64,000 nt of DNA, taken from a virus (Duplodnaviria; Caudoviricetes). Every line of letters starts with the position of its first letter. The first letter of the stretch is position 1. Below, one piece after another: positions 7,115 to 53,779 of this stretch. Both the position numbers and the translations under genes were made by a program. The stretch lies in IMG/VR virus record IMGVR_UViG_3300031994_000020. The stretch is one strand, 5' to 3'. Under the pieces are notes generated by a model. That model worked only from the letters and a program-made list of their open reading frames with translations, was not told the DNA's origin and did no database searches.

Positions 7115-7133
7115 TTAATAGGAGGATAAGAAA

Positions 7134-8165: not shown

Positions 8166-8190
8166 TAATTAATTGCTTTAAAATAAAATA

Positions 8191-8224: not shown

Positions 8225-8251
8225 ATATAAGAGGTAAAAGGAGATAAGTTT

Positions 8252-8857: not shown

Positions 8858-8881
8858 TATTAGAAGAAAGTGAGGTGCCGA

Positions 8882-15200: not shown

Positions 15201-15231
15201 TTTGAAGAAAACAATAGGAGGTATAAGGATT

Positions 15232-21200: not shown

Positions 21201-23595
21201 TGGTGGAGAGTCTGATATGTTTGAAAGTGTATCTCAGGCTCAAGAGAAACTGAAAGAATTACAAGAGCAGTTATTAGAGCAAGGTAAAGCATTATATGAA
21301 TTATATAAAGCCTTATAGCAAAATTATATTGATGGAATGGATCAAGTTAAAGATAAGTTTGATGAACTTATGAAGAGATATAAGCATCTTGATAATGAAC
21401 TTAAATTCCAGAAAGAACTTGTTGAATTAATATATGGTGATAAGGCATATGATTTAATGGATAAATATTATGAGACTCAAGAACATAATATAGAAGCTCA
21501 AATTGATTCTTTAAGACAGCAATCTGATTTTTGGCAAGAGCAATTTAATGAATCATATGAATTGGCTAAGAGAACCGGTGCAGACGTTAATCTTGATGAT
21601 TGGACTACATGGACTGAAGATATGAAGAAAGCCTATGATAATATGATTCAATCTCAAGAAGATTTAAATGATTTAGTTCTTGAGGGTGTTAAGATACTTC
21701 AGGATAAATACCTTAATTCCATTAATAAAATAATGGATGCTATGGATGAAGGTGTTTGGGGCAAGGGCGGATTTGATGAAATGAAATCTAATTAGGATTT
21801 CATGCAAAAGAAAGCTGATGAATTTCTTGATGATGTTCAAGGTATGTATAAGATTCAATCTTTTGCTAGTAAAATAGATGCCGATATTGCTAAAACTGCA
21901 AATGTTAAAAATCAACAGAAATTATTGAATTTTAGAGAGCAAGAAATAGACGCCTTAAGAGAGAAAGAAAATTTAACGCAGGCTGATTTAGATCTTGCGG
22001 AAGCCCGCTATCAAATAGCATTAAAAGAAATTGCCCTTGAAGAAGCTCAGAATAATAAAACGTCAATGAAGTTGACAAGAAATGAACAGGGTAATTAGTC
22101 TTATCAATATGTCGCTGATGAAGATGATGTAGCTGCAAAAGAACAAGATTTAGTAGACTCTTATGGTAATTTATATGAGTTAGCTAATAACTCCTATGAA
22201 CATAGTATGGAATTAGTTATGGAACTCTAGGAAGAAATGCAAGAAAAAATGGCAGAAGTAGCTAATGATACTACATTATCAGAAGAAGCAAAGAATCAAA
22301 AATTACTTGAAATACAAGAACAATATAGACCTTTAATGGAGGCTGCTGCAACGAATGCAGAAATCTATAAACAAGAGGCTATTGTTGCTACAAGCGCAAT
22401 TTTTGGTAAGAGTTGTGAATTAGACTTAAGTAATTATGAGCATTTAACATCTGAGCAAAAGAGACTTGTCGATGAATACAAAGAAGCTGCGGCAGGGGAC
22501 TATGAGCAACTTCGTACAGGTATTATTGAAGGATATTATCCTGCTTTAGCGGAAGCTTCAGAAACTACTTTTAGCAATACTAATATAAATTCTCAAACAA
22601 CTGCGGCAAATGTAATTAAAAGATAGGTTACTGATCCAGATAGCGTTCAAGCTGAAATAACTAAAGCTATAAAAAATATTAGTAAAGCAACTGAAGATTA
22701 TCAAAAACAACTTGATAAATTACAAGAAATAGCTGGTATAGATTTTAGTAAAATTGGTGACGCTATTGATGCAGTTGATCAAAAAATCAATGACATGAAT
22801 GATGATACTAAGAATCTTACTGATGATTCTAGTAATTATCTTGATGAATTGAGAAAATTACTTGAAGAAGTTGCAGAAGCATAGAAAGAAGTATCTGAGA
22901 AAATTCAAAATGCTAAGCGGGATATGGATGACTATGCGCAGGCAACGAGAGAAGCCAAAGCAGCTGAACAGCAGTTAGGTAATCCTCCTTCTAGCCCTGG
23001 AGGCCCTACTTCTAATAATAACGGTAATGGTGACGATAAAGATAAGACTAAAAATGGTGAAGTGAGAAAGAATTGGAAAATTCAAGATAGAATGACAGGA
23101 ACCATTTACGAAACAAAAACAAATGCAACTGAAGAAGAAGCAAATGATTGGTTTAGAGAGAGATCGAAAAATAGAGGAGATGGTAAGTAGCCTGAAATGG
23201 CGCAACCTTTCTTGTCTTCTTATCGCACTGGCGGTTATACAGGTGAGTAGGCTGATGATGGCGGACGTCTTGCAGTGCTTCATCAGAAAGAACTTGTTCT
23301 TAATGCTGATGATACAAAGAATTTCTTATCAGGTATTAATACTATAAGAGATTTAACTGCATTAAATGGTTCTATATCAAATGCTATTATAAGTGCAGTT
23401 GCGGGAATGGCTATGAACCTTGCGGGAGTCAATCCTGGAATTAGTGGTCAAGGATCTGGAACAGCAGCCGCCGCATCTAATACTTATAATATTACAGCAG
23501 AATTCCCTAACGCTTATAGTGCAGAAGAAATTAAACAAGCAATACTTGGTTTACCTAATTACGCATCACAATATGTTAATAGAAATGTAATTTAA
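15232..23595 (+). CDS. Tape measure protein (about 2787 aa; about 22 TAG)
   Basis: 13 ORF-track fragments share one frame and the gaps I read contain only TAG. TP901-type core (ESVGTALKTIYARL, AGKRQYN), long coiled coils, C-terminal TGGYTGE[TAG]..LAVLHQKELVLN. Confidence 0.9.
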
Positions 23596-23705: not shown

Positions 23706-26700
23706 ATGGGTTTTACACAAGAGTTACAAGAAAGTATTATGTCAGCAATTCAAAGTGCTTCTAAAAAAGAAGTAATGAATTCTAATGCTACCTGTACATT
23801 ACAATGCGAAGTTGTCGAAGTAACAGATCCGGGTAAAAATGAGTATAAAGTAAAAATTCAGAATAATATTATTACTGCTTATGGAACTCCATCTGTGACT
23901 TATAAGCCCGGAAATTTAGTCTAGGTATTATTCCCAAATGGTAATGATTAGTCAGATCAAGACGCCATTATAGTAGGCGCAGTGACATATTCTACTGAAT
24001 TATATACAGAGAATGGTAATGATAGTTATATTAATATAAGTGAAAATTTAATAAATGGTTTGAATGAAATTGATTTATACACTTATAATTCAAGTGAACA
24101 ATCAATAGAATTAACAAATGATAATTTTGGAAGTATATTTCTTGATTACTTAAAAGATTATCAAGTATGGAAATTATCTGCTAATATAAAAACAGATATT
24201 CAACCTATGGATCAACGTGCGGCAGGTGATTATGGTATTATTTTAAAATTGCCTATTTTAAAAGACAATGGTAATAATAATTTAAGCCATGATTAGTTTG
24301 ATATAAAAATAAATGTAGATAATATTCAAGGAGATCCTTATAATTTATCTTCATATACAAATCAAGAAATTTATGTAGAGGTTCCCGCGGATTTAGTGTA
24401 GGATCCAACAGATGAAAATGGTAATAAGAGATATCCTATTTTTACTGCTTTTGTTACAGGGTTCGCTCAAAGCCCTCAAAGTGATAAAAAAGATATATTT
24501 TTAAAAGATTTTTCTTTTCAAGCGGTAGATGCTTATACAGAAAAAGTAAAATCTGGCTACTATCTTACTATTGTTTCAGATACTGGAAGATATTATGTAG
24601 GCTCCGAAGAGACAAAAACTCTTAGACCTGTTTTAAAAGTTAATGGAAAAAATAAAAAATTAAATGATTATGATTGCTATTGGTTTAGAGAAAATACTAC
24701 GATTACTCCAGGAAATAGTAAATATTCTAGTTATGGAAAAAGTGGTTAGGAGTGTTTAAATGATTATAACTCTCTTGGAGAGAATGAAGATGGAACAGAA
24801 TCTATTCAGTAGGTAACTGATAATTATGAATATAGTGTACCACAAGATAGTATATACACTTCTATGAAATTTAAATGCGTTTTAGTTGATAAAGAGGGCG
24901 CAGCAGTTGCAGAAGGATATATTGTTTTAACTAATAAATCAACAGATAGTGTTGAGTTTAATTTAAAAACTACAACAGGTTTTACTTCTTATACTAAGAA
25001 TGTAGGTAATGTATCTTTAGTAGCAAGTATTAAACCTAATAATATAATTGTTAATGATTTAATATCTACTACATAGCAAAGATTTGATAAAAATGGTAAT
25101 GCTATAGATACCGATTTTTATAATGTTGTAAGAAGTAATGATAAAAATGAAGATTAGATTGAATTTGAAATAAATTTTCCTTGTTCTTTTATAAATGAAT
25201 AGAATACTATAAAGTGTTCTTTTTAGAGAGAATTTACTAAAAGTACAGGAGAAGTTAAAAAAGAGCTTATTGGAAGTTCAGAAATTCTTATTAATACTCA
25301 AGGTAATTACACTTACAGAGTGGTGATAGAAAATGGTAATTATTTATATAAGTATGATGGTAACGGTAATTCTCCTTTTGTAGCAGATTATAGTGGCCCT
25401 GTCTCTTCTCGTGTTAAAACCATACCTACTTTAAGTTAGAAAATATATAAAGCGGATGGTACTGAATTAACAGAAGATGAATATAAATATTGTAAATGCA
25501 CATAGGTGGCTCCCGCAAATAGACAAGAGTAGAAAACTACTACCATGTTTGATTTTTATGATAATGATAAACAAAATGAAAGAGAAGGTTACTATCATAT
25601 AAATAAAAATCAACTTGATTATAAAATTGCTAACCGTTATAATGATAAAACTTTTGTTAATGATATTACTTTAGTTATTGAATATAATGGAGCTACAATA
25701 GAAGAAACTACTGATATAAGATTTCTAAAAGAAGGCGAGTCTGGTACTAATGGTTCTAAATATACAGGACTTATATTATAGAATGGTTGTACTTATGGAG
25801 AATATGAAGGTTATCTCCATAAATTTCAATTAATTTATAATAATGGAGCAGATCCGGGTTAGTATTGGGTAAATAGAGCTAATGAAGAAGGATCCATTGA
25901 AAAATTTATAGAAACTGAATTTACTGTTCAGATTTATTGCAATGGAGAATCTATTAATGATGATGATAATAATAATAGTCATATACAAAATATAACTTAG
26001 TCTCTTTTTAATGAGCGTCAAGCCAATCCTATGATTGAAATTGATAATAATGGTAAAGTAACTATTAAAGAAGGCACGACTTAGGATGGCATAAAAGACA
26101 CAATAAATATTATTCAAGCGAAAGTTGAAGTAGGACCTTCCGCAGGAGGAATTTCAAATCCGCAAGAAGTACTTTACATTTATTATCCTATTGAAATAAG
26201 TTATATTACTAGCAAATTATATAATAAATCTATTCCAAACATAGGTGGAGGATTTGATAAAGTTTTATATGCTTCTAATGATGGAACGAATCCTCAATAT
26301 AACAATGTTGATTATTTTGAATATATTAATAATATAGATGATGAAGAATATAATTCTTATAATTCATATACTTAGGATGTAATAGGAAATTTAGAATTTA
26401 AAAACTTTTATCCAACCCCTACTGAAGATGATCCTAAAAAAGTAGATGAGTCAAGAATAAAAGTTGATGCTTTGACTACAAAAGAGTCTGCTTTTGATTT
26501 TAATTATGTGAAAGTAACAATGACTAATAAGCAAACAATTGAAAATATAAGAACTAAAATAGATAATACTCAAGGACAAATTAATGATAATAAAGATATA
26601 GAAACAAAAATTTCTACTATTGAAACTAATATTATAAATTTAAAAAATTATTGGTTAAATATTAAAGATAATAATATAGAAAATTCTTTAAGAAGTAGTA

Positions 26701-29138
26701 AAGAATTTGTTAATACAAGGACTAATATGTTAAATGCTTTAAATGATGCTTTAACAGATTTATATACTTTTAATGAAGAATTTAAAAAGATTTTTCCTTC
26801 TGGTAATGAAAATATTTTTAATTATGAAGTAACCAAGGAAGAAATTGAAAATAAGAAAAATGAATTAAGAGTTTTAGGTAAAAAAGATACGCCTGCAGAG
26901 CGTCCTTTTATAAATAAATTAAACACTATTACATTTAATGCACAGCAAATTTCTAAAAAGATAGCTTATGATTTAAATATGTTAATAGATGCTTATAATG
27001 AAGATATTGAAAGATTTAATGATAATTGTAATATTTTTAATGACTTTAATGTTAAAGCAAGTTATTATGGGTAGAAAAATTTTAAGGGCGGAATGTATGA
27101 ATATTGTAATAATAATTCATAGTCAGATTCTCTTAAAGAAAGACCTGAGTACTTAAAATTACAAAATACATTAAATCAATTATTATTAAATTTGAGTAAC
27201 GATAATGATGAAGCTTTAATTTATACTTATTCAGATATTAAAGATAAAGTTTTTGATGAATTTGATAAGTTAATAGAACAATACATGGATACTCCTGCTT
27301 TAGCCCCTATTGATAAAGAAAAAAGTGATTTAGAAGAAGCAAATGTAGCTTTAAATTCTGAATTAAATTCTTATAAAAAAGAACTTGATATTGCAGAGCA
27401 TAGCTCTTCAGTTGTTCATTTAAAACCTATTATAGTTACAATGAATACTCATTCAATGAGTTATTTAAATGATTAGGATGGTAATAAATTATATACTGGA
27501 GGAGATGATGGTGAATACTTATTTGCTCCTCAAGTAGGCGCTGGTAAGAAAGAAAGTGACGGATCTTTTACAGGAATAACTATTGGTGTTAAAGCAACTG
27601 ATAAGAGTCCTAATGAAAAACAAATTGGTTTATTTGGTTTATCTAAAGGTGAGCAAAGCATCTTTTTGAGTGCGGAAGATGGACATGCTGAATTTGGTAA
27701 ATCTGGTTCAGGTCAAATAAAAATATTACCTAATGATCCAACAAATGAAATGGCTGCTATTATTGAAGGTGGTAATTATTCTACTTCTAAAAAAGAAGGT
27801 ATGCAAATAGATTTATCAAAGCCAACAATTAAGTTTGGTAGTGGTAATTTTGAAGTTAGTAAAGAAGGTTGGATAAAAGCTAAAGGCGGTGGGTCAATAG
27901 CTGATTAGACTATTGGAGATAATATTTTAAGTAGTGCAGGTGTGGAGCTTAACTCTTCAGAAAGTTCTGTATAGGTTAAATCTGCGAGAGGGAAAATATA
28001 TTCTGGTTCTCATAACGCTATAGATAATCCTAGTGTTGGCTTTTAGTTATCTAATAATGGATTATCAATTGGTTCTAAATTTAAAGCAACTGATACCGGA
28101 ACCGTTTAGGTTGGAACTGGTGCTTATAATGCTTCTTCTGAAACCGCGACTGATAATAAATGTTAGGCTATTAATGGAAATACAGATGGCTCTTATATTG
28201 GTTTTAAAACAAATAAAGCATATTTTAAACGTGATGAGCATAATGTTTTAATAGGAATTGATACTAACTCTGCAACAGGACATGCTAACTCAGGAGAGGT
28301 ATATATTGGTACTGATGGTTTTAGATTAGGCACTAATTTTGCTGTTGATTCTAATGGTGATTTATTTGGTTCTAGTGTTACTGTTACAGCCGGTCACATT
28401 GGAGATTAGAGTATTAGTAATGGAGAAATAGTAGGTGAGACTTCAAGCGGAGGCGGAACAATAACTTTAAATGCAAAAGGTTCCATAATAGCTAAAAAAG
28501 GAAAAACTACTAAATAGATAATTGATAGAGATGGTTCAGTTACTTTTACAAACGGAACTATTGCAGGGTAGACTTTAAATGAAGCATCTGGAAACATTTC
28601 TGCTAGTTTGACTGCAGGAAATATGACTTTAAGATCAGATGGCTATATCGGGGGAGGTTCCGATTATGCTTAGTATATTGATAATAAAGGTAATGCTTCT
28701 TTTAATAAAATTACTGCAAATGGAATTTTTTCAGGTTCAGCAGATGGAACTTTTTCAGGTTCAGCATCTGGTACTTTTTCAGGCTCAGCAACTGGAACTT
28801 TAACTGGAAATGGAACGAATCCTTTAGGAGGAACTTGTGTTGATCAAATAAAATCTTTATCAGTAGGACAATTAACAGCTCAAGGAGTTTTGGTTGGCGC
28901 TGCTGGAAGTACACACGCTATTACAATGAAAAATGGAAAAATATCAGCAGATAGTATTGATGTTGATAGTATCATAGCGGCCATTGGTAAATTAGAATAT
29001 CTTGAAGTAAGAGGTTTACGAGTAGGATCAACATCATCTACAGGAAGTTTTTATTTTAATGGTTATAATGTATCTAGAAGTGAAAAGGCATCTACTAGTT
29101 ATACTCATGTACTTTCAACACTAGCGAGTCCAGGATAA
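23706..29138 (+). CDS. Large tail tip/central fibre protein (about 1810 aa; about 29 TAG)
   Basis: 8 fragments in one frame. Coiled-coil segment, then C-terminal beta-helix-like repeats (GSIAD[TAG]TI, GHIGD[TAG]SI, GTIAG[TAG]TL). Confidence 0.75.
28722..28800 (+). repeat. 24-bp coding tandem repeat (GxFSGSAx, 3 copies)
   Basis: TTTTCAGGYTCAGCA recurs every 24 nt. Confidence 0.7.
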
Positions 29139-38665: not shown

Positions 38666-41002
38666 ATGCCAGACATTGTAAAAAGAATTAGTCTTAAAAA
38701 TAATCAAGGCGATTACACTAATTATGATATTGGTGCGGATGCTAACAATGTTAGTCTTGTTGAACCAATCAATATTGGTGGCAATATATATAATGATGCA
38801 GAATCTGCATTAAATGCTTTAAATAATAATAACAGCGATGTTGTAATTAAAGATTTTATATCTAAAACCTAGACTGGTCTTACTAGCTTTGATGGTAAAT
38901 ATGTATGGACTGATGGAAATGATATTTATTATTCAAATAATTATCAGCAGTATAAATTAAATAAAAATACCGGTGAATGGACTGAAGTTACTTGGGGCGG
39001 TTTAGCAAGTAATATTCAATTAGATGGTCAATATATATGGTCAGATGGAGAAGATACCTATTATTCAAGAAGCCTTACGGGACATCAATATAAATTAAAT
39101 AAGACTTCTGGAGATTAGGAAACAGCTACTTAGCAAGGAAAATCATTATTCAATGGAATAAATGTATGGACAGATGGAAATCAATATTATCTTTCATATA
39201 ATTCAGATCAATATGTATTGGATAAAACAACAACTCCATATACTTGGGTTGCAGTTACTTAGTCTACACCCGATGGAACATTTGGTGGGAATGGCTATTT
39301 TACGTAGTCAGACGGAAATAATACTTATTATTCTAGTGATAATACTCAATATGTTTTAGATAAAATAAATCCTTATACATAGACACAAATGACATAGACT
39401 GGATTAACTTCCTTTATTGGTTCTAATGTTTGGACTTCTAATGAAGGAGATATTTATCTTTCTGAAGGAACTAAACAATATGTTTTAAATAAAGAAACTT
39501 ATAATTGGTCTCCCGTATCATGGTCTATTCAATTAGTTGATCAAACTAATTTTAAGGGAGAACATATTTAGACTGATGGAAGTGATGTTTATTTCTCTTA
39601 TGGTTCAGAACATTTTATTTTTGACAATAGAAAAATAACAGAAGCTGGTGTACCAAATGGATTAGCTACATTAGATTCAAATGGTAAATTAAATAATACA
39701 CAAATTCCTAGTGGAGCAATGGTTAAGGGTATTGATTATGTTACCGCTGGACAAAAAGCTAACACTACTTTAGGAAATGGAGCTACTGCGGAAGGTCAGA
39801 ATACTACAGCAAGCGGACCTTATTCTCATGCTGAAGGGCAGAATACTACAGCAAGTGGACCATTAGCTCATGCAGAAGGACAAAGCACTGTTGCAAAAGA
39901 AGTAAATGCTCATACAGAAGGTAATGGAACAACAGCTTCTAATGCAAATACTCATGCAGAAGGACTTTCAACAATTGCTTCTGGCCCTAATGCACATGCG
40001 GAAGGTAGTGGCACTGTTGCAAGAGAAGCAAATACACATGCTGAAGGTAATAGTACAACAGCTTCTAACGCAAATGCTCATGCAGAAGGATATTTAACAA
40101 TTGCTTCTAATGCAAATGCACATGCGGAAGGTAATGGTACAACAGCTGCTCATACAAATGCTCATGCAGAAGGTTTTAAAACTGTAACTGGTAATGCTAA
40201 TCAGCATGTAGGCGGAAGATGGAATATAGGTAGAAATAATACTTTATTTGAAATTGGTAATGGTACAGCAAATAATGCAAGATCAAATGCTTTTGAAGTA
40301 TATGAAGATGGAAATATATTTGTTGCAGGAAATGTTGCTAATAATAGGAAAGAAACATTTGTAACTAATAGAGGAATACTTAATTCTTCTTTTGTTATTT
40401 CAGATGATTTTAAAAATAATAGTATTTATTCTTATTTTAGTAATTCTACTGAAAATATAAATATATATATTAATGGTGCTAAATATTTTGGTATTAAAAC
40501 ATCAAATAATGTTTATTTATATACAGGACAAGTTAGTACTGGATATAATGGAATATATGTAAGAGTATTTAATGAAAGCACAGGATTATTAATACATCAA
40601 GGATATTATAATGATGCATCTTTAACTACCACTTTAGAATTAACAGGGAATATTAATTATACATTTTATTTCTATGATATGAATAATGCTCCTTGGGATG
40701 AACATATTATTTATAAAGAATATTGGTTTGGAAGTGGATCACAAGCTGCCGGTCCAGCTGTTGAATGTTCGACATTAGATTCGCATACTTCACTATATTA
40801 TGGAGTAGTAGATGTTGGTATTCCTAATTATCGTTTAGTATCTGCTAATCTTACATCTTCTTGGACACCTACTCCTGATAAAATAACGCCTACACTTTTA
40901 TTAAGAGATTGGGATAAGATTAGGATTTTTGTGGGAGCGAGTCCAGAAACTCTTACTATGGGGTTAAGATGTTTATATCTTAAACGTGGAAGCGAAACAT
41001 AA
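38666..41002 (+). CDS. Tail fibre/receptor-binding protein 1 (778 aa; 8 TAG)
   Basis: N-terminal YDIGADA anchor, six approx. 42-aa Trp repeats, 14-aa HAEG (YadA-head-like) repeats, FEIGNGT neck. Confidence 0.8.
38870..39625 (+). repeat. Six Trp-rich coding repeats (WxxxxW...W[TS]DG..YYS..QY.L.K)
   Basis: Visible on translation; Trp columns use TGG (9) or TAG (8). Confidence 0.85.
39785..40175 (+). repeat. 42-bp coding repeats (AHAEGxxTxAS)
   Basis: About 10 tandem 14-aa units; a related array lies at 46945-47250. Confidence 0.85.
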
Positions 41003-41081
41003 AAAATGAAATAGATCTATTTTTTATATTTAAAAAATTTTATCAAAAATTCAAGATAATAAAATTGTTTTTTAAAAAATT

Positions 41082-41121
41082 AAGGGGACTTAATCATTAG
41101 ATTAAGTCCCCTTTTCTTTTT
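41082..41121 (+). terminator. Rho-independent terminator
   Basis: AAGGGGACTTAATC/GATTAAGTCCCCTT plus T tract. Confidence 0.85.
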
Positions 41122-41209
41122 GGTCAATTATAGTAAATAATGCTTTTATCTTTTTAAAATATAATATTAAAGAAGATATTTTATTAAGAGTAAAAAGGAG
41201 GGACATTAA

Positions 41210-41773
41210 GTGACAACAAATAATGTTATTTCACAATTAAATATAAAAAGATCAAGTGATGGATACGATACTTATTATATTGGTCCAGAATTAAAATATG
41301 TTGGTAGCTTAGCTACATCTAATAATCATAATCTTGAAGAACAAATGATAATGGGAGTAGATAGACAAATTGTTTCTTATTATGATGAAGTAAATAAAGC
41401 GCAAATTGAAATAATAGATTTTCGTAGAAATAGCGATACAAAATATTATACTTTAGAAAAAATAAAGTATGATGGAGATTATGGTATGAGTGTTGCTTAT
41501 GTTCAAGGAAATGTATTAAATTTTAATACTTCTAATATATTTTGTTCACAAGATCATATTTTAGATCAAAATGAATATGATCCAAATATGATTTTTACAG
41601 ATAATAAATTTGATATAACATCAGACTCTATATTAGAAGTAGATACTCTTTATTATACAGATCCTGATGATACAAGCGTACCTGATGGAAAGAAAGCAAT
41701 ATCTATAAAAACAACAATGAGAATTACTAAAGGCGGTCATTCTATGATTGTTGAAACTGTTCAAGAGCCTTGA
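41210..41773 (+). CDS. Hypothetical fibre-associated protein, paralogue of 38044
   Basis: Intact ORF, AAGGAGG RBS, shared N-terminus. Confidence 0.7.
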   Translation: MTTNNVISQLNIKRSSDGYDTYYIGPELKYVGSLATSNNHNLEEQMIMGVDRQIVSYYDEVNKAQIEIIDFRRNSDTKYYTLEKIKYDGDYGMSVAYVQGNVLNFNTSNIFCSQDHILDQNEYDPNMIFTDNKFDITSDSILEVDTLYYTDPDDTSVPDGKKAISIKTTMRITKGGHSMIVETVQEP

Positions 41774-41802
41774 TAAAATAAGAGAAAAGGAGTGGTAAAA
41801 AG

Positions 41803-42078
41803 ATGCCAAATAAGATTATAAATCAAATTAATTTAAAAAATTCTGATGGACAATCATCTGAACTTTATGATATAGGTGCTAATGCTGTTAATGTTATGTA
41901 TGATAATGATACTAATATAAAAACAAAGATTGATAGTAAAGCAGATACACAAGCGGTAGGTCAATCTATTCAACAAATAAGAAATGTAATTCCATCTACC
42001 GCAACAAGTAGTAATCAATTAATAACAGCGAATGATTTAGATACTGCAATATATGATGTTCTTAATACCCCCGTTTAA
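41803..42078 (+). CDS. Short fibre anchor-only protein
   Basis: MPNKIINQINLKN..YDIGANA N-terminus shared with 38666 and 43791. Confidence 0.65.
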   Translation: MPNKIINQINLKNSDGQSSELYDIGANAVNVMYDNDTNIKTKIDSKADTQAVGQSIQQIRNVIPSTATSSNQLITANDLDTAIYDVLNTPV

Positions 42079-42096
42079 TAAAAGGAGGTAATAAAA

Positions 42097-42783
42097 ATGA
42101 GTTTAAAAAGTGTTTTCGTTGATATAGCAAATAGTATTAGAAGTAAAACTGGAACTTCTGAATTAATTAAGCCCGTAGATATAGCAGATGTAATAAATAA
42201 TAGTACTTTAGGCGGCGGTGAATTTGTAATTGCAGATAATGGAGCATTAAAATTTAATTCTAGTGTATTTAATATGCCTGTGAATATTTCTGATAATGTC
42301 ACTGATATGCGTAATTGTTTTTATGGTTGTAGTAATTTTAATCAACCTATTAACATACCTAATAACATTGCTTATATGGGTGGCTGTTTTGCAGGTTGTG
42401 ACAACTTTAATCAACCTATTAATATATCTAATAATGTTACTAATATGTATGAATGTTTTGCAGGTTGTACTAATTTTAATCAACCTGTTAATATACCTAA
42501 TAACATTGCTCATATAGAGCGTTGTTTTTTGGGTTGTAGCAATTTTGGGCAGAATATTTTTTTAAACAAAACTAATTTAACCCCTATGTTTTATAGATCT
42601 ATGCTTGGATCTTGTAATAATTCAAAAACAAAACGAATTTTCATTGGGGCCGGAGTTTCTCCTGGTAATCTTATAGCTTATACTAATGAATTTTCAATAG
42701 TTGGAAATACAATCACATAGTCATCAAATTCAAATTGCACATATAATACAGCATATAATATATATATTTATAATAATAGATAA
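42097..42783 (+). CDS. BspA/DUF285-like LRR protein 1 (TAG at 42718)
   Basis: 22-aa repeats FNQPINIPNNxxxMxxCFxGCxN; reads through to TAA 42781, adjacent to the next RBS. Confidence 0.8.
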
Positions 42784-42797
42784 AGGAGGTACAATGA

Positions 42798-43766
42798 ATG
42801 GCGATTTTAGAAGATGTTTTTATAAATATAGCTAATAGTATTAGAAGTAAAACTGGAACCTCTGAATCAATTAAACCTATAGATATGCCAAATATAATAA
42901 ATAATATAAGTGCTGGCGGTATTTATAATATAACTACAGGAAATGCAGCAACATCATTTAATAAAGAAACATTTAATTATCCTGTTAATATTTCTAATAA
43001 TGTTACTGATATGAGTAATTGTTTTAATAATTGTACTATTTTTAATCAGCCTATTAATATACCTAATAGTGTTACTAATATGTGTAATTGTTTTATACAT
43101 TGCTATGAATTTAATCAACCTGTTAATATACCTAATAGTGTTACTGATATGAATAATTGTTTTAGCTATTGTGGTTTTGGTTTTAATCAACCTATTAATA
43201 TACCTAATAGCGTTACTAATATGGAAAGTTGCTTTCATTTTTGTAATAATTTTAATCAACCTATTAATATACCTAATAATATTACTAGTGTGTATGATCT
43301 TTTTTATAATTGCTATAGTTTCAATCAATATGTAAATATACCTAATAGTGTTACTAATATGTGTGATTGTTTTAGTGGTTGTTAGAATTTTAATCAACCT
43401 GTTAATATACCTAATAATGTAGCAAGCCTTTATTATTGTTTTAGAAATTGTAAAAATTTTAATCAGCCTATTAATATTCCTAATAGTATAACAAATATGG
43501 AAGGTTGTTTTGAGGCTTGTCAAAATTTTGAACAAGATATTATTTTAAAGAAAACTGATTTGCTTCCTATTATGTATGCAAATATATTTAAAAATTGTAA
43601 TAATTCAAAAAGAAAACAAATTTTTGTTGGTATAGGAGGGTCTCCTGGAAATCTTATAGCTTATACTAATAGATATTCAATAGTTGGAGATACAATAACA
43701 TAGACAACAAATTCAAATTGTGCTTATAATACAGCTTTCAATATATATATTTATAACAATAAATAA
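42798..43766 (+). CDS. BspA/DUF285-like LRR protein 2 (TAG at 43383, 43701)
   Basis: Paralogue with more 66-bp repeats; same N- and C-terminal caps. Confidence 0.8.
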
Positions 43767-43790
43767 CAAATAAAGGAGGTATAAAATAAA

Positions 43791-46700
43791 ATGCCATTAA
43801 TCAAACAAATTAACTTAGACAACGATGGTGTTGTAACCTCATATGATATTGCGGCAGATGCTACTAACGTAGAATTACAAAGCCCTGTCACAATAGATGA
43901 ACAACAGTATGAAACTGCGGGAGGCGCGTTAGAGGCGGCCGCCGCAGCTATAAATAACATAGAAATAGATATAGCTGATCTTGGTATAAGCAAGATAGGT
44001 ATATCTCAGATTGGTATGGCTAATGGTGTTGCAAGTCTTGATGCTAATGGTAAGATACCAGTTTCTCAGTTGCCTAGTACCGGTTCGGATGTATATCGTT
44101 ACAATATAGTTACCAAATCAACGGGCGGTTCGGATGCAGCGATAACTATAAAGAAATATCTTAATGAAGAGTTGGTATCATCAACTGACTACCCTTATAA
44201 GACATTTGATCATACCCATGTGATTATTGATAGTTTATTTGACATGATTTATGCCGAAGATGGTCAGGCTAAGTATACAATGACTTTACTTGAGAACTCT
44301 ACCGATCATAATGCCGGATATTCAAGAAGATGGCAATACAATGAAACTGTAGACTTCTCAGAAACATTCATAATGTCAGATGAAGATATTTCGTTTATCG
44401 CTCCTCCATTCTACGCAAATGTATCATATGTTGTTGGCGATAAAGTAACACGTAATGGTAACTTTTACAGATGTAAAATGCCTCATACCGGTGCATGGGA
44501 TATTGCTGATTTCGATAAGATATCTGTGGATGAGTTATTTGACGAGGTGTATGATTCTCTTGATGATATCGCAATTGACATAACGCAACTTGGTATAAGT
44601 AAGGTAGGCATTTCCCAGGTTGGTATCGCTGGAGGTGTTGCTAGTCTTGGTAATGACGGTAAGGTACCGAACAGTCAGTTACCTGCTATACCTACGAAAG
44701 TTTCAGAACTTCAAAATGATAGTGGATTTATTACAGGATATACAGAAACCGATCCTACAGTTCCCGCCTGGGCGAAAGCTTCTACTAAGCCTAGCTATAC
44801 TGCAAGTGAGGTCGGCGCAGTTGCAACTACAGCTGTCGGTAGCGCTAATGGAGTCGCTGAACTAGATAGCACAGGTAAGGTACCTGCCGCACAGCTTCCT
44901 TCTTTTGTTGATGAAATTATAGAAGGTTATCTGAATCCCGCAGATGGTAAGTTTTATGAAGAATCTACTTATGAAACAGAAATACTTGGGGAAGAAGGTA
45001 AGATATATACTGAATTAGCAACTAATAAGACTTATAGATAGTCTGGTTCCGCATTCGTTGAGGTAAGTGAGAGTCTTGCTCTTGGTGAAACATCATCTAC
45101 CGCATATGCGGGCAATAAAGGTAAAGCAAATGCAGATGCGATTGCCGCAATTAAAGATGGAACTAACATTGACAGTTTTAGTGATGTTGAGACTGCTCTT
45201 AGTAATAAGCAGCCTAAGACTCTTGATACTCCTATAGTAGTAGATGAAACAAGTTATACTACTGTAGAATCTGCTATGAATGCTATTAATAATAAAGCTG
45301 TGATAGTAGATGATGAAATGTCTGATACAAGTATTAATCCTGTTCAGAATAAGGTTATTACAGAAGCTTTAAATGGCAAAGAAGATGTGATGGAATATAC
45401 CTCTGATACTAATGTGCTTGAAGTAAATTTACAGCATAGTGCTTTAGTATCAGGCATGGCGATTGACATACAGCCCATACAGGACTTACACGGATATGAT
45501 AAACCGTGGGTTGGTGGCGCTTCAAAACAGCTTCTCCCCTTAACGGTAGCAGGATTAAAAGCATTAAACACCACAGGAACATGGTCTGGAAATAATTATT
45601 CCATTCATGGTGGAGTGATAACCCTTTTAACAGATACGGATGAAAACGTAATAGGGATAAATGCAAACGGGACATTTACCACAAGAGTAGACTTTTCTTT
45701 AGGTAGCGTGTCTCTTAATGGAAGTTATGTTATAAGTGGTTCAACAAATGGTGGTTTGGATAAGTGGATTATATGGACAAGAAGCCACGGCACAGTATTA
45801 TCCGAAATGTCCATGGATGGTGCGGGATATTATAGTGAGACATCAGGAAGTGCCAAAGAATCAGTATTAACTATTTATCCCGGAACGATTAGCAATCAAA
45901 AGTTCTATCCAATGCTTTGCTTGCAGTCTGCTGAAAATCCGACTGTATTTGAACCGTATACAAATGAATGTGCGATAAGTGGAACAAGCAAATTAGATAT
46001 CGTTTGCGCACAGACTTCCCAAATGCTGATACCTACAAATAATGAAAGCGTATATGGTAACGGTTTAACAATGTATTATTTGGGTAAAGGTAAATACAGA
46101 GTAAAAGGAATGCCGACAGCAGGAGCAGGCTTATATAAGAGAATTCAAAGCTTTTATATTTATGGTGGTGATAATTGTCGAGTAAAATTTAGAAATAATA
46201 TAGCAAATAGTGGCATTAGTTTGTCATTTATGAGCGGCTCATCTGTTTTAGATACCTTTTCATTAAATACAGTAAATAGAGAAGGAGGATACAATGCACT
46301 TAAAAATAAATATTGTGATGCTTTTAGAGTAAATATCACTAATACGGGAACATACCTTGATTTTACATTTCAAGTGGAGTTTTATGATTCCCAATTATAC
46401 AATGCCTACACCATCGACCTCAATGGCACACGCTACGGAGGAACACTTGACGTAAAGACGGGCGTGCTGACGGTAGATAAGAAGTTCGCCACCAAAAGAT
46501 GGGGAACATATACACGTACAGATACATTAGGTAAGATGGTTCGTAGACAGATAGGTGCGTTATCCGATGCAAAATCAAACACCACTAATATTATATCAGA
46601 ATTAGCTCCGATGGTGCGTGATTGGGATTCGGACACTTGCCATTTCTATTTGGCAACACAGAATGTAACAATGTTCCTTCCTGTTGGTACGTCAGATGAC

Positions 46701-48695
46701 ACCGAAGTAAATGTGGTATATGAATTAGATACTCCTCTCACCGTTCAGCTTACCCCTACACAGGTAGAATTACTTAAAGGCTATAACTACATTTCAGTTA
46801 ATGGAAATACAGTGATAAGTAAGTTAAATGCTTTTTCGGATGATGCTGTTAAGTATTTAGAGCCGATTATTGATGGGAAGATGACTAAAGGTGTCGACTA
46901 TGTAACAGCCGGACAGAAAGATGGAACAACTCTCGGAACATATGCTACGACAGAAGGACATAATTCCTCTGCTCCTGGTTATGCTGCTCATACAGAGGGA
47001 AGTAACTCAGCAGCAAGCGCATCATGTGCTCATGCAGAAGGATCTGGTACAAGAGCATCTGGTCAGTATTCGCATGCGGAAGGAGAGCAAACAGTAGCAA
47101 GTGGAACATGTGCTCATGCAGAGGGACATGGAACTTCTGCTGGACGTTAGTCACATGCTGAAGGGTACGAAACTAATGCGGAAGAATATTCCCATTCAGA
47201 AGGTCGTGGTACTAATGCTGGATATACTTATTCTCATGCTGAAGGGTATTATACCCAAACAAATTGTGATTATCAACATGTTCAAGGTAAATATAATGAA
47301 GGTAAGCGAGAAACGGCATTTGAAATAGGTAATGGTACGTCAGAAAATGCTCGTTCTAATGCTTTTGAGGTTGATTGGAGTGGCAATGTGACCGCGGCCG
47401 GAGATATTACTGATGGTAATGGTAATAAACTTGCCGATAAGTTAAATTCCGTAAATCCAGCAGTAACTGGACAATTAACTATTGATGGAGTGAGTATTCA
47501 AAAATATGCAACTAAAGACTCGATGGCGTATCAGACGACAATATACGCTTCCCAAGAAGGTGAAACAACATTTAGAGCCGATTATACTGATTGTATTGTT
47601 GATTTTGCTGTAAACGGTTCCATTGTTGATACCGGAATTATACCTTATACTTATAATGGAATAAGTGTCAGTGGTAGTAGTATGACATATGACGGTTCAC
47701 AGGATAAAGACGTAATTGTAAAGATTTACTATGTTGATTCTGTTGGAGTAAAAGTAGACGGTGATGTTATTGATAGTTCTGGAAATGTATTAAGAAATAA
47801 ACTTAATTCTTCAGATATAAGCGCGTAGGCGAAAGCAAGTACGAAGCCAACGTATACAGCATCCGAAGTGGGGGCAATAGCTGTTGATGCAGGCTTTGTA
47901 CATACAGATGATATAACATACGACCCTGATATAAAAACAGTAACGTGTACAAAGAGTGTAAATGGTTGGACGTCACAGATATACTCAAAATCAGGATATG
48001 TTGATAATGTATTTGTAACATTTAAGCCAGATTCAAGAAATGGGTATCGTATGGTTGGGCTTGATTCTAATCCATCTGAATCAGTAGACTTCACTTCTAT
48101 TGATTTTTGCTTCTTTTGTCAAGGTGGTGGAAGCTTATACATATTTGAAAGCGGGACACAGATAACACCACCTGCTGGGCATACTACCTATAGTGCTGGG
48201 GATGAATTACGCATAGAGTATAGTGATGGATTTGTTAGATACTATCACAACGGGGAGCTTGTCAGAAGCGTAGCAAGAGCTATTGGCAATCCTTTATATC
48301 TCGATTCATCATTCTACAATAGCGGAAGTGTGTATGATGTTGAGTTTGGAGCAGGACTCGGAAATACAAATAAGCCGACAGTTGTATATGAAGTGGGACA
48401 ATTAAGCAATAGTCAGACTTTGGTAGATAGTTTTAAAGAGTTTGCAAGAGCACATAGTGCAGAGCCTACAATAAGTTTTGAGGGCATAGGCTATATAAGC
48501 GGCGGCACTCAATCTGATTTACCAGCGGTTTCTACTGTATGGACTTATGCAACAGTTAAATTTATAGTCCGATTTGCCGAAACTTTAGGCAGAGAAGATG
48601 GTACAATTATATTATATGGCTATGATTCTAACAAAATAGCTATGAAAGCAATCGCCAATGGTACTGCTCGAAGTGGATGGTTAATACTTGAATAA
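43791..48695 (+). CDS. Tail fibre/receptor-binding protein 2 (1634 aa; TAG at 45039, 47148, 47826)
   Basis: 4 fragments in one frame; GVASLDxxGKVP repeats, NKTYR[TAG]SGS, HAEG repeats, mosaic C-terminal domains. Confidence 0.8.
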
Positions 48696-48734
48696 AAGAA
48701 GTATTTTTAAGAAAAGTAAGGAGGAAATAAACAA

Positions 48735-49004
48735 ATGGCAAAGTATGCAGTAGTAGAATGCAACAACAGTAATTTCAGCATAGTATCTGAATGGACGGAT
48801 AACAAAGACGGGGCTATTTCTGATTGACACAGGGAATGTAGGACTTTAATGAACGCTCCCGACGTGAAAAGAGCAGTGGTTAAGGTAGTTGACGAGGATT
48901 TTAACTTGGTAGACGGCAAGCAGGAGCTTATTTTTCATCCCGATGAAATACCACAGTCCGAAATGCCTGCGGAGGATGATGATGCGGAAAATGAACCTGC
49001 ATAA
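48735..49004 (+). pseudogene. Small fibre-associated gene with in-frame TGA at 48825
   Basis: AAGGAGG RBS; MAKYAVVE..ISD[TGA]HRECRTLMNAPDV.. continues as plausible protein to TAA 49002. Confidence 0.55.
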
Positions 49005-49158
49005 ATAATCTTGTCAGCTGTGTAATTAGTGGAACATTTGATGGTACTGTTACTAACTATTCGCCTATAACTGCGGGAGTATCAGCAACAATAACATTCA
49101 CATAAGTAAAGTAACATAAAACGAACATTTTTAACGGAAAAATAAGGAGGATAAAAAC

Positions 49159-49242
49159 ATGAAATATGCAATAACATGGACAACTAATACAGATTGTGTG
49201 TATAATACAGCTTTTAATATATATATTTATAATAATAAATAA
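49159..49242 (+). pseudogene. 27-aa chimeric relic ORF (MKYA start fused to LRR C-terminal cap)
   Basis: AAGGAGG RBS; MKYAITWTTNTDCVYNTAFNIYIYNNK nearly matches the ends of both LRR genes. Confidence 0.7.
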
Positions 49243-49376
49243 GAAAGAGTACTCGCAGATACTGTAAAGAAATGCAGCTGCAAGGGCTTATTTAAAAATT
49301 TTTTAATACGTTCGGACAAACTAAATAAATCTATTTTAATGTAATTTCATATATATTATCAAGGAGGATAATATAT

Positions 49377-49895
49377 ATGATTACATTAGCAATAGATGCT
49401 TCAACGAAGTCAACAGGTTAGAGCATATTTGAAAATCAAGAATTAAAAGATTATGGTTGTATTACGGCTTCAAGTTCAAATCTCTACAATAGAATAGATA
49501 AAATGATAGAAGAAATAGATAAGATACTTCAAAAATATAATATAGAGCAAGTTGTAATTGAAGAAGTATTACCAGAAGATGTTAAAGGTAATAATTCTGT
49601 TTTCAAAGCACTTATGTATCTTCAAGCATTTATCGCACATAAATTAAATCAATATGATATTATTCCAAAATTTATAGTATCATCAGAGTGGCGAAAAAAA
49701 TGCGGGATTCATACTGGGCCTGGGATTCGTAGAGAGAGTCTCAAACCAAAAGACATTGCCTTTGTAAAATCTCAATTTGGTATTAATACAAATGATGATG
49801 TTGCAGATGCAATATGTATAGGATTTGCTGCGGTAGGTGGTACTATCAAAGAAAACCAAGTGATAAAAACAGATGATGGATTTGAGTTTGCATGA
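49377..49895 (+). CDS. RuvC-like Holliday junction resolvase (TAG at 49419)
   Basis: LAIDASTKSTG[TAG]SIF, VVIEE, SEWRK, DDVADAICIG. The first catalytic Asp lies upstream of the TAG. Confidence 0.85.
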
Positions 49896-50110
49896 TGCAC
49901 TTGGGCAAACTTGATAAAATTGCTTACCGCAATTTTTAAATAATATTACAAGGGAATAAATTACTTTCTCATAGGTTCTCTGATAACCTAGTTTTTACTC
50001 CCTAGTAAATAAAATACTTTCATAATCTATGTGAAAGTAATATCCTTTTAAATTCTTAATTGATATATCTATCAACAATTCTTTTTAAATTCCACAAGGA
50101 GAGAAGTACA

Positions 50111-50560
50111 ATGGGTAACTTTAACAATTTTCAACGTAATAGTAATTTTGCACCTTTTTATACCCCATCTTCAGTAGTGAGTACTACACCAACGAATAAT
50201 ATTATTTAGGTTCAAGGAATAGAAGGGGCTAAAGCATGGCAACTTGCACCTAGTAGTATTGCAATTCTTTTAGATAGTGAATCAGATGGCAAAATGTATA
50301 TTAAGGTAAGCGATAATATAGGTATGTCTACATTAAGAATTTTTAATTATGTGGAAGAAATACCTAATAACAATGTAAGTACAAGTGTAACCGTAAACAA
50401 TGATTTGGATTTAACTCAATATGTGAGAAAAGACGAATTAAGCAAATTGATAAAGGAGTTAATAGGAAATGAGCAATCTTTACCAACAACTGATGCGGCA
50501 GGCCCCGCCCCTTCAACCACAAGCCCAGGCCCCGCAAAAGTTACAATCCTCAAAAAGTAA
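50111..50560 (+). CDS. Conserved Firmicutes phage hypothetical protein (TAG at 50207)
   Basis: NII[TAG]VQGIEGAKAW..LLDSE..MYIK; AAGGAG RBS. Confidence 0.7.
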
Positions 50561-50753
50561 TTTTTCATTAAAAAATCTTATGAATATCTCCGACCCTTCC
50601 TCGTTCATTCAGAACATGGTCGCGAGCAATCCCCAATTACAAAATGTAATGCAATTATTTCAATCAAGCAAACTTTCCCCAAAAGAATTTTTTTATCAAT
50701 ATGCTAAGCAGAATGGAGTAGATCCAGATCAGTTTCTAAATTCTTTAAAATAA
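50469..50753 (+). CDS. Gln/Pro-rich hypothetical protein
   Basis: AAGGAG upstream; NPQLQNVM..PKEFFYQYAKQNGVDP; overlaps the previous gene by 92 nt. Confidence 0.65.
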   Translation: MSNLYQQLMRQAPPLQPQAQAPQKLQSSKSNFSLKNLMNISDPSSFIQNMVASNPQLQNVMQLFQSSKLSPKEFFYQYAKQNGVDPDQFLNSLK

Positions 50754-50766
50754 GGAGGACATAATA

Positions 50767-51468
50767 ATGTCAGAAAATGGTCTTAGTGCTAGTGATGTTG
50801 CTTTATTAAGCGGAAACCGCGATGGTTTTAATGGATGGGGAGATTCTTCATTCTTTTGGATCTTTGCATTATTAATTCTTGCCGGCGGTGGATTCGGTGG
50901 TTTTGGTTTTGGCAATAATGGATTTGCTAATGCTATTGGTTATGAAAACCTTGCAACTTCTAATGAAGTCCAGAGAGGATTTGATAATCAGAACTCCATG
51001 GCTAACCAGAGAGATATACTTGCCGCAGTAAATTCAGGAACCGCACAAGCAGTTGGTGCTACTAATCAAGTTTATCACGATATAGTAGGTTATGTCGGTG
51101 ATAAGTATAATGAACTTGATAGAGACATCTTTGGTGTAGGCAGCGCTGTTCAGCAGTCAATAGCAAATCAGAACGAATGCTGCTGCGGAACCAAGATGCT
51201 CATGATGGAAACAGGAGCTGGAATCAATGCAGGAATAGCTCAGAACCGTTATGAAGCAGCTATGAATACAGCCGCAATTAACGCAAATACAACAGCACAA
51301 ACACAGAAAATCCTTGATGCTATCCAAGGCAATAGAATAGCAGATTTACAGGATAAAGTTAATCAGCTTGAATTACAGAGTCAACTTGCTTCTGTAGTAC
51401 GCTATCCTAACAATACTTTCTACGCAGTTCCTTCACCTTGCTTTAATTGCGGATGCGGGAATATCTAA
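50767..51468 (+). CDS. Gly-rich TM / coiled-coil / Cys-tailed hypothetical protein
   Basis: FFWIFALLILAGGGFGGFG, QNECCC, TQKILD, CFNCGCG. Confidence 0.75.
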   Translation: MSENGLSASDVALLSGNRDGFNGWGDSSFFWIFALLILAGGGFGGFGFGNNGFANAIGYENLATSNEVQRGFDNQNSMANQRDILAAVNSGTAQAVGATNQVYHDIVGYVGDKYNELDRDIFGVGSAVQQSIANQNECCCGTKMLMMETGAGINAGIAQNRYEAAMNTAAINANTTAQTQKILDAIQGNRIADLQDKVNQLELQSQLASVVRYPNNTFYAVPSPCFNCGCGNI

Positions 51469-51512
51469 TTTAAATCTTTAAACGTCCATTTGACGAGGTA
51501 ATTTTTCACTTC

Positions 51513-51541
51513 GAGGGCGTTTTCTACACGCCCTCTTTTTC
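51513..51541 (+). terminator. Rho-independent terminator
   Basis: GAGGGCGT/ACGCCCTC plus T tract. Confidence 0.7.
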
Positions 51542-51563
51542 TTAATTTAAGGAGGACAATCAA

Positions 51564-51971
51564 ATGAGCAAGTCTGCTATTTATACCGTAAATTCTTCTG
51601 CACAAAATGTTGCAGTTAATGGAACTATTAATTTAGGTACAATCATTAGAAGATATGGCCCAAATGTAAATTTAAATGGAAATGCTATAACTATAAGCGG
51701 AGGCGGGTACTATGATGTTGATGCTTCTATAACATTAGCGCCTACCGCCGCTGGAAACGTAACTGTAACCGCATATAAGGATAATGTTGCGATCCCTGGA
51801 GCTACAGCTAGTGCTACAGCGATCGCCGCAAATGATTTAGTCAATCTCTCTATTTCTTCTATTGTAAGAGAATCATGTGCATGTTGTGAAAGTTTATCTA
51901 ATATTACTTTAGTATTAACAGGAACTGCCGCAAGCATTTCTAATGTAGCTGTTGCTGTGGAGAAACTTTAA
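51564..51971 (+). CDS. Beta-sandwich protein (BclA-C-terminal-like, tentative)
   Basis: ITISGGGYYDVDASITL..AIPGATAS; fold assignment is inference. Confidence 0.5.
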   Translation: MSKSAIYTVNSSAQNVAVNGTINLGTIIRRYGPNVNLNGNAITISGGGYYDVDASITLAPTAAGNVTVTAYKDNVAIPGATASATAIAANDLVNLSISSIVRESCACCESLSNITLVLTGTAASISNVAVAVEKL

Positions 51972-52540
51972 TGACAATAGAAGAAGTATTCAGCGGAATA
52001 GGTCAGAGAATGGTTGAAGGTTTAATGACTCATTCTCAATTAGCTGATTATTTTGGTTTTTTAGGATTAGAAGGTTATCAACAATGTCATTTATATCATT
52101 ATTTTGATGAAAATTGTAATTATAAAAAGATAAGTAATTATTATTTAAAACATTATAATAAATTATTAATAGATATGCCTTTTAAAAATCCTAATGTAAT
52201 ACCTGCTGATTAGTTTAGATACAATAGACAGCAAGTAACAAGTGATATTAGAAAAGATTCTATAAATGCGGGATTTGAAAAATAGGTAGAATAGGAAAAG
52301 AACACTAAAATATTTTATGAGCAAATGTATCGCACACTATCTCAACTTGGAGAAGATGCGGCTGCCGCATTTATATTGGATTTTGTAAAAGATGTAGATT
52401 GTGAGCTTGCGGAAGCTCAACAAAAATATCTTGAACTGACTGCTATTGATTATGACATTACTAATGTAATGGAAGAACAAGAGAGAGTAAAAAAGAAATA
52501 TAAAAATAAAATAAAGGAGATTTCATTATGTATGATATAA
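51971..52540 (+). CDS. Ferritin-like four-helix protein (3 TAG)
   Basis: FLGLEGY..HLYH..E, IPAD[TAG]FRY, K[TAG]VE[TAG]EKNTK, DVDCEL; fragments in frame. Confidence 0.65.
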
Positions 52541-52716
52541 AAGATATATGTGATGAGATAAAGAATCTTGAGGAGTGCGAACTTTCTTAGGATATGTGTA
52601 AGAAACTTTCATCTCTTTATATAATAAAAGATTTTTATAAAAAATATTATGAAGATGCGGGAACTCGCCTTGTGGCGAACGAAACTATGATGACTTCTCC
52701 AATGAAGGAGAGATAA
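52528..52716 (+). CDS. Small hypothetical protein (62 aa; TAG at 52588)
   Basis: AAGGAG RBS; reads to TAA 52714 just before the terminator. Confidence 0.55.
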
Positions 52717-52720
52717 AAAT

Positions 52721-52758
52721 AAGGACGTAGATTATTTATCTACGTCCTTTTTCTTTTT
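52721..52758. terminator. Terminator between the convergent late and early arms
   Basis: AAGGACGTAGAT/ATCTACGTCCTT stem with A- and T-rich flanks. Confidence 0.8.
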
Positions 52759-53779
52759 ATAAATTTAATATAAAATCTCTGAAACTTTGAGTTTCAACGA
52801 AACTACAACATCCTATTTGACTTCCCATTTTTACTCTATTGTATCTATCTGGCATACCATATATATATTTAATAATATCCCAATCATTTAATCTGAGTTC
52901 TTCTATAATCTTTCTTTTTAATGACTTTAAAGCATCATAGCTTTCAACTAATGTATCATTAGCACCAAGTCTCCATAAGCTAGCTTGATAATAAAAATAT
53001 CCATGAAGTAAAGTCATCATAATTTGATGGAGTCCAAAATTCTTAAGATTTTGGTCATCATTATTTAAATACATATCAAAGAAAGGATAGCTTGCCCCCA
53101 TAAGAAAATCTCCAAGATATGTGTCTATGTAAAAATTTTTTTCATTAAAATAAGACCTTGATAAAGACTCTGGATTGTGAACCCATTTATAAGTATAAAT
53201 AGGAACATAAGCATAATCTTCTCCTATTGATATTAAAGAAGCTAAGTTACACGAGTTAAAGAAAACATCTTCATGTGACATTAAATCTTCTTTAAAATAA
53301 CAATGAAATTTATTTAATGTATTTTCTACATTAAAATATTTTCCATGGAGCCAAGTATCTGTTTCATCGCCATGAAATTCTCTTCCATAGGTTTGTGTAT
53401 CATAAAAGAATTCTCTAAATTCTGTGCATAATGTGTATTCTATACCATCTTCTTGTATTATTTTAAATACTGTCTTAAAAGCATTTGGTTCAAACATATC
53501 ATCATTGTCTATAAAAGTAAGCCATTCTCCGTGTACATAAGGGAGTGCGGCCTGCCGCGTATTTCCTGGACAATGTACCTCCCGCGTTGTTTCACAATAT
53601 ACAATATTCATTTTATCTTCAAATGTTTTTACCACATTAAGAAAATTATCAGTTGATTTATCATCACAAATAATAACTTCATAATCATCTTTATGAAGTC
53701 CATTATCTAATACGGATTGTAACAATCTACCTATTGTTTTTTCACAATTATAACATGGTACAACGATTGATAATTTCAT
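52757..53779 (-). CDS. Glycosyltransferase family 2
   Basis: SIVVPCYN, ICDDKSTD, FIDNDD, HEDVFF. Confidence 0.9.
   Translation of the reverse strand: MKLSIVVPCYNCEKTIGRLLQSVLDNGLHKDDYEVIICDDKSTDNFLNVVKTFEDKMNIVYCETTREVHCPGNTRQAALPYVHGEWLTFIDNDDMFEPNAFKTVFKIIQEDGIEYTLCTEFREFFYDTQTYGREFHGDETDTWLHGKYFNVENTLNKFHCYFKEDLMSHEDVFFNSCNLASLISIGEDYAYVPIYTYKWVHNPESLSRSYFNEKNFYIDTYLGDFLMGASYPFFDMYLNNDDQNLKNFGLHQIMMTLLHGYFYYQASLWRLGANDTLVESYDALKSLKRKIIEELRLNDWDIIKYIYGMPDRYNRVKMGSQIGCCSFVETQSFRDFILNL

Follow-up and report, generated by a model that had tools for sequence, protein, structure and literature searches.

Genes of the locus and their TAG codons

We looked at in-frame TAG codons in a stretch of 64,000 nucleotides from a virus of the Caudoviricetes (IMG/VR record IMGVR_UViG_3300031994_000020), called the window below, where they fall in a tail-fibre gene, in two leucine-rich repeat (LRR) genes next to it and in many other genes. 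The window corresponds to bases 55212-119211, read on the reverse strand, of one virus contig of 146,105 bp with 32.7% G+C (completeness 93% according to CheckV). On its plus strand, the part from 17 to about 52540 is taken up by genes of the terminase, the portal, the head and the tail and by tape-measure-sized ones, and its minus strand, from 52757 on, carries long open reading frames (ORFs) that contain no TAG. A sequence-only reading of this DNA had noticed that duplicated segments between 42700 and 49242 differ by TGG versus TAG and had taken TAG to stand for tryptophan there. Coordinates are those of the window unless the genome is named. The genes concerned are the following.

42097..42783, plus strand: DUF285 LRR protein 1 (LRR1), 228 aa; Pfam PF03382, E = 1.1e-22
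42798..43766, plus strand: DUF285 LRR protein 2 (LRR2), 322 aa; Pfam PF03382, E = 4.9e-27
43791..48695, plus strand: tail-fibre gene, 1634 codons with TAG read through; PHROG tail-fibre and minor-tail families
49159..49242, plus strand: LRR 3'-end remnant ORF, 27 codons, with its own Shine-Dalgarno sequence; recognized from its sequence

The fibre gene has three in-frame TAGs, at 45039, 47148 and 47826. It also contains two copies of the motif WAKASTKP[ST]YTASEVGA, which read PAW AKASTKPSYTASEVGA, with TGG at 44769, and SA[TAG]AKASTKPTYTASEVGA, with TAG at 47826. When the two copies were aligned, 18 of 25 residues were identical (E = 2e-10, single comparison). Over a core of 20 codons, 40 of the 60 nucleotides were identical and 14 codons differed: ten of the differences were synonymous, three were conservative (P/S, S/T and V/I) and the last was the TGG/TAG pair. 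The synonymous differences included serine TCT/AGT and AGT/TCC, that is, switches between the TCN and AGY boxes. Such mostly synonymous divergence indicates an old repeat kept under protein-level selection and not a fresh copy of the DNA. As far as the comparison of the two copies goes, it shows that the fibre frame is translated through and past TAG 47826. The two other TAGs also lie in recognizable motifs: TAG 45039 is within YRW[SG]GS, and TAG 47148 is within an xSHAEG repeat, the sister repeats of which have Y, C or A at that place.

LRR1 and LRR2 were 60% identical (E = 2e-72), and the pair scored 80.5 and 94.5 bits against PF03382, for which the gathering cut-off is 25. Neither gene contains a TGG codon. 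LRR1 has a single in-frame TAG (42718-42720), located in the cap motif TIT[TAG]SSNSNC.YNTAYNIYIYNN, and LRR2 has two, one in a variable repeat position (43383-43385) and one in the cap (43701-43703). The C-terminal cap common to both proteins reads TIT[TAG](S/T)(S/T)NSNC.YNTA.NIYIYNN. A third copy of this cap, 75 nt in length, closes the remnant ORF (MKYAITWTTNTDC.YNTAFNIYIYNNK) and has TGG (49177-49179) at the position of the LRR TAG. It matched LRR2 at 66 of 75 nt and LRR1 at 60 of 75 nt, and the three copies were alike through the TAA stop. The remnant could be a scar left by recombination in the receptor-binding module, or it could encode a small peptide that is expressed. The cap TAGs of LRR1 and LRR2 probably go back to one inherited TGG-to-TAG event.

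The five codons on which the sequence-only reading had relied (TGG 44769, TAG 47826, TAG 42718, TAG 43701 and TGG 49177) were thus found in place, together with the peptides that it quoted. Pairwise nucleotide and protein alignment bore out the homology of the segments in both the LRR and the fibre set, and conservation at the protein level continued after each TAG. The TAG/TAG/TGG set of the LRR cap held as well, the third copy being part of a remnant and not a whole gene, and the count of two independent pairings of TAG with Trp is right when taken as one in the fibre and one in the LRR caps. By a rough estimate, in segments that are about 85% identical, a Trp is expected opposite Gln or another residue in well under 1% of columns, and the two TGG/TAG pairings alone would then favour Trp by several orders of magnitude. 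Homologue alignments, profiles, tallies over the window and the genome, and a Trp-type tRNA(CUA), all described below, lend further support to the reading of TAG as Trp.

TAG sites in homologues and across the genome

To look at the fibre sites in outside proteins, we queried HMMER with fibre residues 290-470 in a full search (16,887 proteins), and the best 150 proteins were aligned locally. Within this set, W stood opposite TAG 47826 in 189 of 189 alignments. Opposite TAG 45039, in the context YRW[SG]GS.[FY]VEIS, W was found in 142 of 216 alignments and Y in 25, the remainder being repeat misalignments, and at the TGG codon 44769 W was found in 339 of 387. An exact-pattern scan of metagenomes detected TGG at site 45039, within an identical 23-nt context, in the distant fibre of one contig (L092), and the same kind of scan in IMG/VR around TAG 45039 gave no match. 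Close relatives of the fibre and of the 1810-aa tail protein, which would have allowed orthologous TAG/TGG polymorphism in the fibre to be tabulated directly, were found neither in IMG/VR nor in the JGI metagenomes. For the LRR caps, 120 DUF285 homologues were retrieved. W stood opposite the cap TAG of LRR2 in 30 of 38 alignments and opposite that of LRR1 in 26 of 39 (56 of 77 together), and most of the alignments that had no W opposite the TAG had one shifted by one or two residues, which corresponds to register slips.

Then, PHROG profiles were scored with TAG translated as either W or Q. The fibre profile phrog_38707 gave 119.3 bits with W and 103.2 bits with Q, and phrog_25468, which spans TAG 47148, gave 82.8 bits with W and 78.0 bits with Q, so that W is favoured by 4.8 bits at this site. 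For the portal (phrog_2739), the scores were 262.5 bits with W and 256.8 bits with Q. Overall, W exceeded Q by 4 to 16 bits in profiles of the fibre, the portal, the terminase and the resolvase, the last of which is encoded just downstream of the remnant.

49377..49895, plus strand: RuvC-like Holliday-junction resolvase (phrog_827), with one TAG at 49419-49421

The resolvase scored 69.9 bits with W and 63.6 bits with Q. Among five complete relatives, three have TGG at its TAG site and one has TAT. The resolvase TAG adds one more independent site to those read as Trp.

For the head module (genes 17-10726, 21 TAG sites), the comparison was made with 80 IMG/VR contigs whose portals are 58-77% identical. 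At 19 of these 21 sites TGG was aligned most often, and aromatic codons led at the other two, while about two Gln codons were counted in the whole tally of 80 relatives. TGA was present in these same Trp columns in 21 of the 80 contigs, indicating that those contigs use code 4. Three short IMG/VR contigs (L004, L010 and L011) had TAG at the window's TAG sites and also at its TGG sites; judging from these alignments, the TAG = Trp code is common to a small group that includes them. The tail genes are more divergent, and here five complete relatives were compared at 93 further TAG sites. Of about 267 aligned codons, 82 were TGG, 34 were TAT and 19 were TTT or TTC (53 for Tyr and Phe together), and six encoded Gln. 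Under code 15, TAG should align with Gln; in both modules Trp dominated and Gln codons made up about 2% or less.

In the genome, 233 in-frame TAGs were counted in 72 of 176 ORFs, and the coding fraction rose from 0.75 under the standard code to 0.89 with TAG as a sense codon. Late, virion, lysis and homing-endonuclease genes are the only ones that contain them, and two genes (15202-23595 and 23706-29138) have 22 to 30 of them. TGG was depleted where TAG occurs: ORFs bearing TAG had 0.59% TGG and 1.08% TAG, and ORFs free of TAG had 1.34% TGG. Gln was not depleted in TAG-bearing ORFs (3.6% versus 3.0%). When TAG counts as sense, TAA closes 126 of the 176 ORFs and TGA the other 50, the ORF caller used being unable to end an ORF at TAG. 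Code 4 would place TGA at Trp columns throughout the late genes, and the window has one candidate for this, at 48825. As far as TAG and the stop codons go, the pattern is that of NCBI table 32: TAG aligns with Trp, and both TAA and TGA serve as stops.

A Trp-type tRNA(CUA) and the meaning of TAG

The genome encodes 23 tRNAs and one transfer-messenger RNA (tmRNA). A tRNA(CUA) gene of 93 nt (genome 10262-10354) begins 8 nt downstream of the gene for tRNA-Trp(CCA), the pair spanning 10182-10354. The two tRNAs have an identical T arm, the same acceptor stem except for one compensated pair, a G discriminator and the same anticodon-loop context. Of 70 core positions, tRNA(CUA) has 56 in common with tRNA-Trp and 46 with tRNA-Gln, and is therefore not the Gln-type suppressor that goes with code 15. 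By these matches, it is a tandem paralogue of the phage's own tRNA-Trp(CCA). Its extra length of about 23 nt folds into a hairpin of 5 bp with a 7-nt loop, GUCCAAA, which copies the Trp anticodon loop CUCCAAA. A homologous tRNA was detected in a relative recoded at TGA (G005, L094:1504-1678): this tRNA(UCA), of 96 nt, also adjoins a tRNA-Trp and has the same extra arm, with the loop CUCCAAA identical to the Trp anticodon loop and with compensatory changes in the stem. The presence of the same arm with compensatory stem changes supports the hairpin as a selected feature. We found no gene for a release factor or a class-I synthetase in the phage contig, which is 93% complete by CheckV. As the contig has no synthetase, charging by the host tryptophanyl-tRNA synthetase is what would be expected.

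Altogether, these results make it very probable that the phage decodes TAG as tryptophan. Trp codons of late genes would have drifted from TGG to TAG by single G-to-A changes, and as such changes are silent when TAG means Trp, paralogues and orthologues would come to differ by TGG/TAG at conserved Trp positions. The host tryptophanyl-tRNA synthetase would charge tRNA(CUA), and the extra arm probably supplies the CCA identity element lost from the real anticodon. Late genes that bear TAG might then be translatable only once tRNA(CUA) is made, and a role of recoding in the timing of late genes has already been proposed for other recoded phages.

Several points weigh against this reading. The evidence consists throughout of sequence comparison, so that the insertion of Trp is what we infer from it. 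Amber suppressors in E. coli are generally glutaminylated, and even su7/supU, which was made from the tRNA-Trp of E. coli, is charged mainly with Gln. Of 162 phage tRNA(CUA) species screened in E. coli extract, 29 were analysed by mass spectrometry; 28 of these inserted Gln and one inserted Ala. Some insertion of Gln at TAG is thus possible. Moreover, the cap remnant that provides the TGG of the LRR set may be under no selection, and two of the six TAGs of the LRR and fibre genes (43383 and 47148) sit in variable positions, about which alignment says little. TGG and TAG together amount to 1.67% in TAG-bearing genes, slightly above the 1.34% of TGG in the others. Finally, in a few ORFs the last TAG comes 3 to 13 codons before the end, and an occasional TAG stop is possible.

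Some of these points would fit a mixed meaning of TAG, either partial read-through with termination, giving short and long forms of proteins such as the LRR proteins, or dual charging of the tRNA with Trp and Gln. Host release factor 1 should compete at TAG if the phage has neither release factor nor synthetase, the glutaminylation of amber suppressors would allow for the second amino acid, and some ORFs have a TAG close to their end. We consider this unlikely, as the full-length products of genes with 22 to 30 TAGs require efficient read-through, homologues keep the LRR cap past the TAG as part of one continuous protein, and the TAG sites are conserved Trp columns, so that it is Trp that selection sees.

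A uniform meaning of glutamine, as in code 15, is less probable still. It would turn the TGG/TAG pairs into Trp-to-Gln replacements, and it has precedent on its side: code 15 is the only reassignment of TAG reported for phages and the one that pipelines for gene calling take for granted, the distant relative phAss-1, with a portal 37% identical, is annotated with TAG = Gln, as are its relatives, and Gln is what phage tRNA(CUA) species usually take in E. coli extract. It would leave the near absence of Gln codons opposite TAG in the head and tail tallies hard to explain, and the same applies to the invariant W opposite 47826, to the drop of the profile scores with Q, to the depletion of TGG but not of Gln in TAG-bearing genes, and to a tRNA(CUA) that resembles tRNA-Trp and not tRNA-Gln. 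That the TAGs are real stops, in pseudogenes or split genes or through assembly or sequencing errors, can practically be dismissed: the standard code indeed breaks the fibre into four ORFs and leaves a coding density of 75%, but the 233 TAGs are limited to one gene class and give 89% when read as sense, the synonymous-dominated divergence extends past them, three other contigs repeat their use and a matching tRNA(CUA) is encoded.

Known codes, relatives and smaller features of the locus

The main survey of recoded phages saw two reassignments and no others, TAG to Gln and TGA to Trp, where the code of the phage differs from that of its host (Borges et al., bioRxiv 10.1101/2021.08.26.457843), and a paper on phage annotation provides for tables 15 and 4. 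When full texts were searched for a tryptophan meaning of TAG or UAG, a plant-organelle paper was the sole result. The meaning TAG = Trp is new for any virus in the searchable literature, stop-codon recoding in phages being itself known. Gut and rumen phages using code 4, such as the Agate phages (about 127 kb), likewise read a stop codon as Trp in late genes and have a Trp-type suppressor tRNA, and as in those phages the minus-strand genes of the present one, which we call early, stay code-neutral. In code-4 members of the same portal-defined clade, TGA stands in the same Trp columns that hold TAG in this phage. The difference from them is that the recoded codon here is TAG, and that TGA ends 50 of the 176 ORFs. 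With the code-15 phages (crAss-like, Lak and phAss-1; PMC9523058, PMC10607447), this phage shares virion genes with in-frame TAG, a tRNA(CUA) of its own, the lack of a phage synthetase and a layout with two codes; unlike in these, the amino acid is very probably Trp and the tRNA is of the Trp type. NCBI table 32, from plastids of Balanophoraceae, gives TAG the same meaning, and translation with it reads the fibre TAG as W. That table belongs to a plant organelle, whereas here a virus carries a tRNA(CUA) that would impose the code on an infected cell, in part of its own genes. The suppressor su7/supU also joins a tRNA-Trp body to the anticodon CUA. It is mostly charged with Gln, whereas the phage tRNA has the arm with the Trp loop and reads conserved Trp columns.

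Since TAG = Gln and TGA = Trp are the only options in recoding surveys and in annotation tools for phages, translation with table 15 would silently mistranslate every TAG of this phage and of similar TAG = Trp genomes. The capture of the amber codon by a tRNA that is presumably charged with Trp was unexpected, as amber suppressors normally carry Gln, as su7 does. An unusual tRNA(CUA) of this kind could be of interest for engineered amber suppression in which analogues of tryptophan are used. The comparison of paralogues also identifies the amino acid from a single genome, without any database.

A portal search placed the nearest relatives of the phage among large siphovirus-like phages of Enterococcus, Brevibacillus, Bacillus and Lactococcus, together with phAss-1 (37% identity). 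With siphovirus-like relatives from Bacillota and phAss-1, the phage is not crAss-like, and that identity was dropped. We also made a quick tree of the portals, with code labels taken from about 20 kb around the portal, which may miss sparse recoding: G005 was labelled standard by its portal region, yet has TGA in a tail gene. In this tree, the window paired with L010 and L004 paired with L011, both of these TAG-using pairs lay inside a group of 17 rows that otherwise use the standard code, and the users of TGA all fell into the second main branch. Closely related phages of three kinds (standard code, TGA = Trp and TAG = Trp) would provide a natural series for the onset of a code change. We put forward, tentatively and with slightly more doubt than belief, that within this one clade of large phages TAG and TGA were reassigned to Trp in different lineages by means of homologous suppressor tRNAs bearing the Trp-anticodon-loop arm, Trp identity being thereby uncoupled from the real anticodon. 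If true, the arm-bearing tRNA would be a natural portable adaptor able to direct a new codon to Trp.

A second internal repeat was observed at the N-terminus of the fibre (43950-44690), where residues 55-95 and 258-300 share the pattern IDIADLGISK.GISQ.G...GVASL...GK.P.SQLP. A near-identical fibre protein on record (P0145, 209 of 213 residues) is without residues 64-266, which corresponds to a deletion between the two N-terminal repeats, and ends at the same TAG 45039.

An Rfam scan of window 41000-53000 gave no match. Outside the window, ARAGORN detected a tRNA-like gene whose anticodon has four bases (aaag) at genome 7792-7864, and located the tmRNA at genome 18416-18760, with the tag AKKIVSFPTKVALAA.

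Finally, one more ORF lies between the fibre gene and the cap remnant.

48735..49004, plus strand: small ORF of 89 codons with a Shine-Dalgarno sequence upstream; recognized from its translation

It falls inside the coordinates of the TAG finding and is not part of it. The ORF has an in-frame TGA (48825-48827) at a conserved Trp position, where two homologues (P0276 and P0277) have W and a third (P0278) has F, TGA being otherwise a normal stop in this phage. A tblastn search of the phage records and the fetched loci with this ORF gave no match. The TGA could be a nonsense mutation with a restart at Met39, an import from a relative in which TGA = Trp, or a site of low-level read-through. A product of 51 aa on record (P0279) fits the restart at Met39.

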